Positions 52,069-53,762 of a stretch of DNA of 64,000 bases are shown in pieces. Made by a program: the position numbers and the translations under genes. The stretch is from Gammaproteobacteria bacterium (lineage in GTDB: Bacteria > Pseudomonadota > Gammaproteobacteria > UBA4575). The stretch's first letter is position 1, and the number at the start of each line of letters is the position of its first letter. The notes under the pieces are model-generated. The model searched no databases. It was not told the origin of the DNA and saw only the letters and a list, made by a program, of their open reading frames with translations. The stretch is taken from positions 285,231-349,230 of the forward strand of contig OZ242174.1 of assembly GCA_965205685.1 (NCBI GenBank). Reading direction: 5' to 3'.

Positions 52069-53493
52069 TCAGACCGAGCCTGGACTACGGCCCTTATTCC
52101 AAACTTCTTGCCATGCTGTAAACTCGGAAGGTCTGATCCTGTAGCGCGCGAAGCTTCCCTCGTGCAAACCCAAGACTTCTCTTTCTGCAATCTTGCGAAA
52201 CCTTTCACGCTCCTCTTCTTCGATATGCTCCTGTGTCCATCCGTCGATGTAAAGAGAGGCCTGCATTTTGCCCATGCCTTTGCACACAACTGTGCTGACA
52301 ACTTCACGCAACTCTGCACGGTGTCGCATCCGAATTGGATCAGGCTCCTGTAACGATTGTCTTGCCGCAGCATACCGGACTGCAGATCTCTTATAGGCCC
52401 AGACAAACACATCGCGAAACAGTTCAACGCGGTTTCGCTCGTACACGCCAAGCAAAGCCTCGGTATAGATGTCCCGCGGCACGTCCTCAAAAGACAGGGG
52501 GGAGAGATTTGCCCGGATCAAAGGGATGTTTGCCGAGAGGCGCGACACCCGCTTGTTGAGATCATCGAACGGCTGCAGGTAGGGAAGCTGCACCAGGACG
52601 AACAGGGCTTGCTCAAATGGGTCGGTGATTGCCGAGGCCGTAGTGAGGATCCGGTCGAAATGTTCTTCGATGCGTTGCGGGATTCCCAGAGGATAAAAGA
52701 CTGAACCTTCTATGCCTACGTCCATATGCCGAAGGCGGCCCTCAGCTTCCGGGGTGGGCAGCAGGCCATTGGCCAGCAGTGCATGGAGATTCAGCAGGGT
52801 GTATCGATTGAAACCGGTCTCCTCTGCTGATTCAACCAGAAACTCGATCGCATCCTTGTGGTTCAGGATCATCTGTGCTTCGGCCAACTCCTTTCCTTGG
52901 GCCTGTTCACCTGCCTCAATCAGGTGTTGTGTATCGAGTAACGAATAGGTGTTGCCCTCAAGGCGGCTTGAATTCCAGGACAGGTCAATCAGCAGTTTTT
53001 CCAGGATTTTTCTGGCATACGTACCGGCAGTTTGCTCAGGCATGTTGGAACTGCCAGCCTCCTGGAGAAGGGCTCGCTCTTCCTGTGACAGATAAAAGGT
53101 TTCATTCGGCCGGTACGAGTCCAGGAACGCATGGTTGTAGCCAACCGGTGTGCGTGCCTGGAGTGGTTGACGGACGTACTCCAGGACCTCTGTGCCGGAT
53201 GCTGACAGCGGTGGAACAGGCTGTTGGAGATCTACCCTGGCGGACGGATGACCCGCACTGATTTTTGCTTCCAGAGAAATCCTTTGCGGCATCCGGTAAC
53301 GGGACCAGCGGCCCGTGCCTTCCATGACCAGGCGTTTACTGTCCACCAGGGACTTGAGGCGGTATTGCAAAGTCCGTCGCGGTGGGGCAAGCTCCAGTGC
53401 GTCGCTGATCTGCTGGGCGGTGATGCCTTGGGGGTGTTGCCTGACGACCTTTTCAATCGCCTGAAAATCCTCTTCCCGAACATGTCTGGCCAT
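52069..53493 (-). CDS. Fic/DOC-family protein with N-terminal winged-helix domain and degenerate Fic motif
   Basis: Fic core helices are present, with QPFDDLNKRVSR in place of the canonical HPFx(D/E)GNGRxxR. Start at internal Met MARHVREEDF. Confidence 0.65.
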   Translation of the reverse strand: MARHVREEDFQAIEKVVRQHPQGITAQQISDALELAPPRRTLQYRLKSLVDSKRLVMEGTGRWSRYRMPQRISLEAKISAGHPSARVDLQQPVPPLSASGTEVLEYVRQPLQARTPVGYNHAFLDSYRPNETFYLSQEERALLQEAGSSNMPEQTAGTYARKILEKLLIDLSWNSSRLEGNTYSLLDTQHLIEAGEQAQGKELAEAQMILNHKDAIEFLVESAEETGFNRYTLLNLHALLANGLLPTPEAEGRLRHMDVGIEGSVFYPLGIPQRIEEHFDRILTTASAITDPFEQALFVLVQLPYLQPFDDLNKRVSRLSANIPLIRANLSPLSFEDVPRDIYTEALLGVYERNRVELFRDVFVWAYKRSAVRYAAARQSLQEPDPIRMRHRAELREVVSTVVCKGMGKMQASLYIDGWTQEHIEEEERERFRKIAEREVLGLHEGSFARYRIRPSEFTAWQEVWNKGRSPGSV

Positions 53494-53554
53494 TGAGCGA
53501 CTCCAAAACTGTGTACGCCGACTTAAACGGCATACGCGCAATATTAAACCTTTT

Positions 53555-53762
53555 ATGCGCAAATATCAATCTTATACGCAATTAAAATGGCGCGTGGCCT
53601 ATCCTTTCTGCGCATGTCCAGACTGGACTTCACCTGCCCACCTCAAATTGCTGTATAAGGCGGGAAACTTCACCCGGAGTCATCGAAAATATCGAGGTAA
53701 GAGCACGGCTTGGGAACGCGTCCCATCTTGCAGGCGACCGTGAAATTGTTGATTCTCACTAG
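53555..53762 (+). pseudogene. frameshifted GraT/HigB-like (RelE-fold) toxin remnant
   Basis: One frame encodes …LKLLYKAGNFTRSHRKYRGKSTAW. After a 1-nt shift it continues RLGNASHLAGDREIVDSH* and ends 11 nt before higA, upstream of a GGAGG RBS. These resemble the GraT …GNRAGQHSIRVNDQW | RLCFTWTEHGPVNVEIVDYH segments. Confidence 0.35.

Follow-up and report, generated by a model that had tools for sequence, protein, structure and literature searches.

A family of Fic proteins with glutamine in place of the catalytic histidine, and a phased array of predicted operator sites in its own promoter

The gene and its product

We have analysed a gene of the Fic family that lies in a stretch of 64,000 nt from a gammaproteobacterium (contig OZ242174.1, positions 285,231 to 349,230); the whole of this stretch is termed the window. 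The protein, here called Fic(Q), has a glutamine where Fic proteins carry their catalytic histidine, and three copies of a short repeat are found in the promoter of its gene. The coding sequence occupies 52069–53493 on the (−) strand and comprises 474 codons and a stop codon (52069–52071), its limits being taken from the list of open reading frames (ORFs), the translation, and alignment of the start with those of homologues. As listed, the ORF (52069–53562) begins with a TTG at 53562, but this is an upstream extension and not the true start. The ATG at 53493 was chosen because the homologues begin with MAR(R/H)I, giving a protein with the N-terminal sequence MARHVREEDF. A likely ribosome-binding site of sequence GGAG can be read 7 nt before the ATG (53501–53504, (−) strand).

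In the AlphaFold2 model (predicted local distance difference test, pLDDT, of 92.7, from an alignment of 105 sequences with 34–92% identity) the 474 amino acids form three domains, i.e. a winged helix, a Fic domain and a helical C-terminus, all encoded on the (−) strand. The N-terminal winged helix-turn-helix comprises residues 1–70 (53284–53493), with a recognition helix of sequence PPRRTLQYRLK (residues 37–47) and a wing of sequence GRWSRY (residues 61–66) that includes Trp63. It is followed by a section that is disordered in the model (residues 71–97). The motif SSRLEGN of the inhibitory helix (S175–N181; 52951–52971) aligns with TVAIEGN of FICD, and fits the pattern (S/T)xxxE(G/N) of class II Fic proteins. 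The Fic core (residues 229–323; 52525–52809) includes the flap region GRLRHMDVGIEGSVFYPL and matches Pfam PF02661 with 34.4 bits against a cut-off of 24. Within it lies the variant active-site motif QPFDDLNKRVSR (Q307–R318; 52540–52575) that replaces HPFx(D/E)GNGRxxR, where the glutamine is encoded by CAG at 52575–52573. The C-terminal region (residues 340–467; 52093–52476) is entirely helical with pLDDT values mostly above 90; taken in isolation it gave no significant match to Pfam, and its residues Y367, S370 and W461 are kept across the family. A scan of the protein against NCBIfam returned no model.

Glutamine at the position of the catalytic histidine

In established Fic chemistry the catalytic histidine acts as the general base. 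In Fic(Q) the corresponding sequence is QPFDDLNKR (residues 307–315; 52549–52575). A phmmer search of the PDB matched human FICD and Caenorhabditis elegans Fic-1 (E ~1e-9), placing QPFDDLNKR column for column under the HPFIDGNGR of FICD, with Q307 on the catalytic histidine and S175 and E179 on the inhibitory motif. The protein has the Fic fold, the SoFic structures 3eqx and 3zcn being among the fold matches, and it belongs to class II, having the inhibitory (S/T)xxxE(G/N) in the same chain and N-terminal to the Fic motif. The F, D, N, R and R of the motif are retained while the H, G and G are substituted, and this is therefore not the canonical motif of the AMPylating Fic proteins, i.e. those that transfer adenosine monophosphate (AMP). 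Nor is it the Doc motif HxFx(D/N)(A/G)NKR: the NKR is present, but the histidine is replaced by glutamine and the (A/G) by leucine (valine in the family).

A first-pass annotation made from the sequence had reported the N-terminal winged-helix domain and the replacement of the catalytic histidine and both glycines. Both observations were borne out, with profile and structure alignments alike putting the Fic motif at this position. The same annotation had named a canonical motif elsewhere in the protein as the outcome that would overturn its reading. Neither the profile alignment nor a search for HxFx(D/E)GNGR in the remainder of Fic(Q) revealed one, and the observation stands; a sequence HAFLD at residue 121 falls outside the Fic core and is not kept in the relatives. 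By analogy with established Fic chemistry it is a reasonable inference that canonical AMPylation has been lost. In CccR the H192A substitution abolishes activity (PMC9755527), and SoFic is likewise inactive without its histidine (bioRxiv 10.64898/2026.07.09.737422). Binding of a ligand, or a non-canonical reaction, by Fic(Q) is possible.

Conservation and spread of the family

Two samples of relatives were examined: a diverse set of 105 proteins with 34–92% identity, and a locus set of 81 species-level representatives with non-identical promoters. The position of the histidine is occupied by glutamine in 101 of the 105 diverse relatives, and by histidine in none. In the same set the other columns of the motif are F309 in 105, D311 in 93, N313 in 102, K314 in 89, R315 in 93 and R318 in 105; S175 is found in 103 and E179 in 98, and the flap residues G252 and R255 in 104 each. 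Overall, the pocket residues are 85–100% conserved, and the inhibitory motif is present in 93–98% of the relatives. Both glutamine codons are used in the 81 loci (CAG in 59, CAA in 22); neither CAC nor CAT occurs, although a histidine codon is a single substitution away. In the best 120 homologues (66–91% identical) QPFDDVNKR is found in 114 and SSRLEGN in all 120, and the mean column identity among close homologues is 78%. The family consensus is QPFxDVNKRVSR; the window copy and 12 of the 105 relatives have leucine instead of glycine or valine.

A word-indexed search gave at least 8000 clusters at 90% identity, with PF02661 in all of the listed homologues, and an exhaustive search of representatives at 50% identity gave 790 proteins with E<1e-30. 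On scanning genomes, relatives with intact, full-length ORFs and 55–70% identity were found in at least 595 species. The hosts include Acidobacteriota, Alpha- and Gammaproteobacteria, Latescibacterota, Spirochaetia, Caldilineaceae, Rhodothermales, Gemmatimonadales and Trueperaceae, and the gene is borne by 31 plasmids, where it is annotated just as 'Fic family protein'. Such identity across phyla points to horizontal spread under strong purifying selection. Judged by these alignments, Fic(Q) is a conserved variant belonging to a large family with a fixed glutamine, and not a degenerate one-off.

Some divergence within the family was also observed. In some of the most distant members (P0162, P0169, P0215, P0217 and P0250) the pocket erodes further, giving e.g. 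QPFEHLNNNVARL, QPFGSLNQCVSRL and QPFHHGSLVTSRL, while the Gln-Pro-Phe and the final arginine persist, a hint that certain branches can do without ligand binding. Five relatives (P0125, P0127, P0132, P0144 and P0215) align only from around residue 95. Their N-terminal regions differ, with sub-threshold matches to HTH_20, DIP2311-like_C and HTH_12 (other winged-helix families), and the DNA-binding module may have been swapped within the family. In several assemblies (L004–L009) that carry identical copies of the Fic(Q) gene (P0046), the downstream side is constant while the upstream side has different genes and copies of a DDE transposase at varying positions, consistent with local rearrangement of the DNA around Fic(Q) by insertion sequences.

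Three phased sites in the Fic(Q) promoter

A promoter scan identified a sigma-70-type promoter at 53541–53569 on the (−) strand, comprising a −35 element TTGATA (53569–53564), a spacer of 17 nt and a −10 element TAATAT (53546–53541). The three repeats, also on the (−) strand, are arranged around it. Site 1 (ATTGCGTATAA; 53572–53582) is directly upstream of the −35 element, site 2 (TTTGCGCATAA; 53553–53563) is within the spacer, and site 3 (ATTGCGCGTAT; 53532–53542) overlaps the 3′ end of the −10 element and the likely start of transcription. Three direct repeats had been noted previously with a spacing of 20–25 bp; the repeats are there, but their cores are 19 and 21 bp apart.

The sites were scored using a matrix of 14 nt (consensus TATTGCGCATAGAC) built from the 81 homologous promoters. 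Sites 1, 2 and 3 scored 15.2, 16.9 and 18.0 bits respectively, while the next-best match in the whole of the window scored 10.9 bits, and the exact pattern TTGCGCRTA is found in the window at this spot only. From comparison with the family, the three repeats are best described as the local form of a family-wide predicted operator, TTGCGC(A/G)TAG, and as part of what is typically an array of five sites. The last inverted site is missing from the window copy and from a 91% identical orthologue (L003), and the first is degenerate at most; a possible remnant of this upstream inverted site, CTGCGCATG (53608–53616, (+) strand), scores below 8 bits and is assigned with low confidence.

The operator across the family

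The same words are found upstream of the gene in an orthologue of 72% identity from another organism (L001). Within the 130 nt before the start codon ATTGCGC occurs in 67 of the 81 promoters, compared with 2 of 81 control stretches, and TATGCGCA in 48 compared with none. With the matrix, 310 sites were located in the 200 nt preceding each of about 83 genes (approximately 17 kb), as against 75 in 799 kb of flanking sequence, an enrichment of about 200-fold. The commonest layout is - + + + -, i.e. an inverted site, three direct sites and a further inverted site. Direct sites are spaced by 19–21 bp, which places them on one face of the helix, and the distance between the centres of inverted and direct sites is 14–16 bp. 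When the promoters are anchored on the sites, the family consensus shows site 1 immediately followed by the −35 element TTGAt, the spacer occupied by site 2, and site 3 fused to a −10 element T(t/a)TAAT, with the start codon 34–40 nt further on. The promoter in the window, TTGATA-17-TAATAT, has the same placement.

The recognition helix RRTLQYRLK is nearly invariant, and so is the TTGCG core of the sites. By contrast, the wing residue varies together with the DNA. Where residue 63 is tryptophan (54 loci), TA is found two bases after TTGCGC in 79% of sites; where it is glycine, alanine, serine or similar (23 loci) the fraction is 20% (Mann–Whitney p = 4e-10). Comparison by lineage, with distances measured outside the winged helix, gave a TA fraction below that of the nearest tryptophan-bearing relative in 16 of 17 non-tryptophan lineages (sign test p = 1.4e-4). 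This covariation of the wing residue with the TA step of the operator argues, as indirect but specific evidence, that the Fic(Q) protein reads its own operator. An all-against-all BLAST of flanking ORFs found no family in more than 7 of about 80 loci, and these at variable positions, and a Pfam scan of 138 adjacent ORFs found none in more than two. With no conserved gene nearby, the one constant candidate for the binder is the winged helix of Fic(Q) itself.

We looked for further clusters of sites near other genes in the 799 kb of flanks (5 kb on each side). The matches were scattered, single and near background, and thus provide no evidence for a regulon over this distance, with one orphan array in addition. 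This has three sites, TTGCGCGTAT-n-TTGCGCGTAG-n-TACGCGCAA (L010, 10798–10845), and is not followed by a Fic(Q) gene. The array is flanked by a truncated ORF and a convergent gene, is situated just downstream of a canonical Fic gene (9069–10535; motif HPFQDGNGR), and appears to be what is left of a second copy that has been lost.

A proposed self-repressing single-gene module

This analysis has established the domain architecture, the conservation of the motif and the operator, the overlap of the operator with the promoter, and the covariation of the protein with the operator. We consider that the Fic(Q) gene is a self-contained, self-repressing module of one gene in which the Fic pocket provides the sensor or effector half, and give this a probability of about 0.6. 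DNA binding, repression, oligomerization, the ligand and the biological output are the parts that we infer.

The winged helix would recognize 10-bp sites of sequence TTGCGC(A/G)TAG, with RRTLQYRLK probably reading the invariant TTGCG core and Trp63 of the wing probably reading the TA step. Several copies of the protein would be bound on one face of the DNA, probably joined via their Fic domains as in FICD, CccR and SoFic. The occupied sites, about two helical turns apart, would abut the −35 element, fill the spacer and cover the −10 element and the transcription start, so shutting the gene's own sigma-70 promoter, and in most relatives the two flanking inverted sites would extend the array. 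Negative autoregulation by cooperative filling of phased promoter sites is the best-supported step of this scheme and is very probable, the indirect support from the conserved array over the promoter and from the covariation being strong.

The Fic domain of this module has the class II fold, with the catalytic histidine fixed as glutamine and the second glycine replaced by lysine as in Doc. It would no longer carry out canonical histidine-dependent AMP transfer, yet would still bind a phosphate-bearing ligand, which might be a nucleotide or else a target peptide, modified or not, and would serve the protein as its sensor or effector. We argue that the pocket is maintained because the phosphate-binding Asp, Asn, Arg and Arg, the target-docking flap and the inhibitory serine and glutamate have been retained, and it is this retention together with the loss of the histidine that leads us to favour a domain that binds a ligand or target without transferring a group to it.

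A bolder proposal, which we regard as possible but on balance doubtful, is that the histidine-less Fic domain is the sensory domain of a one-component transcription factor. The ligand, held without turnover in the conserved pocket of Asp, Asn, Lys, Arg, Arg and the inhibitory glutamate, would be a nucleotide or a peptide carrying an AMP or phosphate group, and occupancy of the pocket would switch the oligomer on or off its five-site operator. The family would then be one of 'reader' pseudoenzymes, spread horizontally through many phyla as a single autonomous gene. In a still bolder variant the glutamine would support a new Fic chemistry.

A number of points weigh against the interpretation as a self-repressing module with a non-transferring pocket. 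The strong conservation of the pocket, the flap and the inhibitory glutamate would be expected of an active enzyme, and the description as non-catalytic may be wrong. AvrB, which has the Fido fold without a Fic motif, can still be catalytic, and rhamnosylation is mentioned in the SoFic preprint. The tests of covariation rest on a rough definition of lineages rather than on a full phylogenetic model, and the window copy has just three of the usual five sites. Lastly, a repressor that targets only itself has no obvious benefit, so the model lacks an output.

Alternative explanations

The main rival is that Fic(Q) is an active, non-canonical toxin akin to Fic and Doc, perhaps a kinase or a nucleotidyl transferase employing a base other than histidine. 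It would be silenced by autorepression and by its internal inhibitory glutamate, thus forming a one-gene toxin–antitoxin or abortive-infection module to be freed by a trigger such as phage. D311, N313, K314, R315, R318, G252, R255, S175 and E179 are indeed conserved as in working Fic enzymes, and toxic genes that are kept tightly silent typically have several operator sites across their promoter. The NKR ending is that of Doc, which is described as a kinase in PMC4454073, citing Castro-Roa 2013, and Khater and Mohanty allow that the glutamine clade is possibly not dead (PMC4454073). However, the general-base histidine is missing from all 105 diverse relatives and all 81 loci, and in characterized Fic and Doc proteins its loss abolishes activity (H192A in PMC9755527; the SoFic preprint). 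Some distant members lose K314, R315 or D311 as well, e.g. QPFEHLNNNVARL and QPFHHGSLVTSRL. The neighbours in the window (HipBA, AbiE, HEPN/RES, AbiL and the HigA orphan) would suit a toxin, as would the RES and AbiL genes shared by the 91% orthologue, but in other genomes the adjacent genes are mostly housekeeping or metabolic and not defence. PADLOC gave weak matches to PDC-S04 (E 1e-12) and SoFic (E 5e-10), but they are partial, covering the generic Fic core and falling short of full length. On this balance we think an active toxin unlikely. We reject as having a negligible chance of being correct the view that Fic(Q) is a decaying, functionless relic, in which the substitution of the histidine and both canonical glycines would be mutational damage. 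The ORFs are intact and full-length in at least 595 species with 55–70% identity across phyla, while the motif is uniform (QPFxDVNKRVSR) with both glutamine codons and no histidine codon, and 78% mean column identity among close homologues.

Other explanations concern the repeats. They might belong to a divergent higBA promoter as sites for HigA, given that higA and the remains of higB are located on the other side of them and that HigA antitoxins are generally known to autorepress; or they might reflect chance, short AT-rich repeats being common in promoters. Yet in about 75 of the 81 loci, from many phyla and with unrelated neighbours, Fic(Q) is preceded by these sites in this arrangement; they vary in step with a residue in the winged helix of Fic(Q), and the Fic(Q) promoter is the only place in the window with exact or matrix matches. 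Both versions are rejected as extremely improbable. The first-pass annotation had also pointed to a related motif upstream of abiEi, from which Fic(Q) might be supposed to control the abiE operon too. The 10-mer GCAATTAAAA is indeed present there. It occurs exactly twice in the 64 kb, at 51971 and 53578, both upstream of adjacent, co-oriented genes, with 0.05 copies expected from shuffles of the whole window. But such shuffles give too low an estimate of how often two AT-rich promoters share a word by chance when the window as a whole is GC-rich, and the proposed link fails on the sequence of the abiEi copy, TTAATTGCATAAAG, in which the CG that is invariant in TTGCG is missing and whose score is below 8 bits. 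Moreover this copy overlaps abiEi's own perfect inverted repeat CATAAAGTAT/ATACTTTATG, AbiEi proteins being known autorepressors acting on inverted repeats according to the account in PMC9755527 (citing Hampton 2018), and abiE is not a conserved neighbour of the Fic(Q) family. Shared control is thus rejected as very unlikely, and we treat the common 10-mer as a coincidence of two AT-rich promoters, or at most a lead.

Relationship to known Fic proteins and regulators

Fic proteins have been studied almost wholly as histidine-dependent transferases of AMP, phosphocholine or phosphate. The Fic(Q) family has a fixed glutamine, yet strong selection still acts on the remainder of the active site and likewise on the flap and the inhibitory glutamate. 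The system comprises one gene, one promoter, a 10-bp site and a predicted contact residue, and is thus suited to asking what a Fic pocket without its canonical base does, whether sensing, trapping of a target or new chemistry. To our knowledge the three-domain architecture, the scale of the family, the five-site operator and the covariation of wing and operator have not been described before. A limited search of the literature on glutamine-type Fic proteins found no experimental work, only an in silico note of 2015 and the precedents of CccR and SoFic.

The closest parallels in function are CccR of Yersinia pseudotuberculosis, where two 10-bp inverted repeats at −35 and −10 have been footprinted (PMC9755527), and SoFic of Shewanella oneidensis, a protein that binds to the promoter of its own gene (bioRxiv 10.64898/2026.07.09.737422). 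Like Fic(Q), these are class II proteins that combine an N-terminal inhibitory SxxxEG and a DNA-binding helix-turn-helix in one chain. Their genes stand alone with no antitoxin partner, and there are 10-bp sites at their own −35 and −10 elements (footprinted for CccR, predicted for Fic(Q)). Unlike Fic(Q), they have the DNA-binding domain at the C-terminus rather than the N-terminus, and a histidine that is needed for AMPylation of FtsZ and EF-Tu. They have a single pair of inverted repeats compared with three direct and two inverted phased sites, and the sequence similarity to Fic(Q) is confined to the Fic core. Fic(Q) therefore extends the idea of Fic proteins as transcription factors to a different architecture with a far wider distribution.

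FICD/HYPE and Fic-1, class II enzymes that AMPylate and deAMPylate, share with Fic(Q) the inhibitory helix, the flap and the positions of the motif, but HPFIDGNGR of FICD becomes QPFDDLNKR, and Fic(Q) has no tetratricopeptide repeats or membrane anchor, adding instead the winged helix and the helical C-terminal domain. Doc of phage P1 also has lysine for the second glycine and the NKR ending (PMC4454073), but it keeps the histidine, and is a small single-domain protein neutralized by a separate antitoxin, Phd; Fic(Q) has the larger class II fold with an internal inhibitory helix and no conserved partner gene. Clade D2 of Khater and Mohanty (2015), defined in silico from 45 sequences with the pattern Qx[F/Y]x[D/E][G/V]NKR and 'usually single-domain' (PMC4454073), has the same change of histidine to glutamine and NKR ending and is found in bacteria only; QPFxDVNKR fits its pattern, membership being compared by description only. 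The Fic(Q) family differs in having three domains and thousands of members, and the window copy has leucine at the [G/V] position. Finally AbiEi of the type IV toxin–antitoxin systems, an example of which adjoins Fic(Q) in the window, is a protein with an N-terminal winged helix that represses its own promoter, as predicted for Fic(Q), and is found on mobile or defence-rich DNA. It differs in having another C-terminal domain, a partner toxin AbiEii, and an inverted-repeat operator as opposed to a phased direct array.

Genomic context

The gene in the window lies within an island of toxin–antitoxin and defence genes that includes HipB/HipA (a canonical HipBA pair, 46088–47915), AbiEii/AbiEi, Fic(Q), an orphan HigA, a HEPN/RES protein and AbiLii/AbiLi, as well as ORFs for a predicted acetyltransferase, a LexA-like and a ParB-like protein that were read from their translations alone. 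These surroundings make a role in a conflict system worth testing. Elsewhere Fic(Q) is bordered mostly by genes of housekeeping or metabolic function, and occasionally by genes for transposases, integrases or toxin–antitoxin systems; the island is therefore not a trait of the family. There are no tRNA genes in the window, and a megablast search of the island against plasmids matched only the Fic gene, with 76% identity.

Several of the neighbouring genes are of interest themselves. A block at 54447–57423 ((−) strand) has a HEPN/RES-NTD1 + RES protein of 409 amino acids directly downstream of AbiLii (RloB) and AbiLi (an AAA ATPase). The same RES and AbiL neighbours accompany the 91% orthologue in L003, indicating that the trio travels together. 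Beside HipBA, at 48106–49763 ((+) strand), there is a HipA_2-like kinase of 270 amino acids (Pfam PF20613, with a weak PADLOC match to PDC-M66A), overlapped by 4 nt by an ORF of 282 amino acids that has no match in Pfam or PADLOC; together they may constitute an uncharacterized two-gene kinase system.

The promoter of Fic(Q) adjoins an old higBA promoter region. An intact higA (53774–54073, (+) strand) is preceded by the remains of higB (53615–53762, (+) strand), in which HigB-like pieces are found in three different frames (HLKLLYKAGNFT, KLHPES and AGDREIVDSH*); on account of this splitting HigA appears to be an orphan antitoxin whose toxin has decayed. Beyond the other end of Fic(Q), the inverted repeat of abiEi has two perfect 10-nt arms separated by 9 nt (51943–51971). 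It spans the start of abiEi, whose ATG at 51945 is included in the proximal arm, and is probably either an operator for AbiEi or an RNA hairpin over the start codon.

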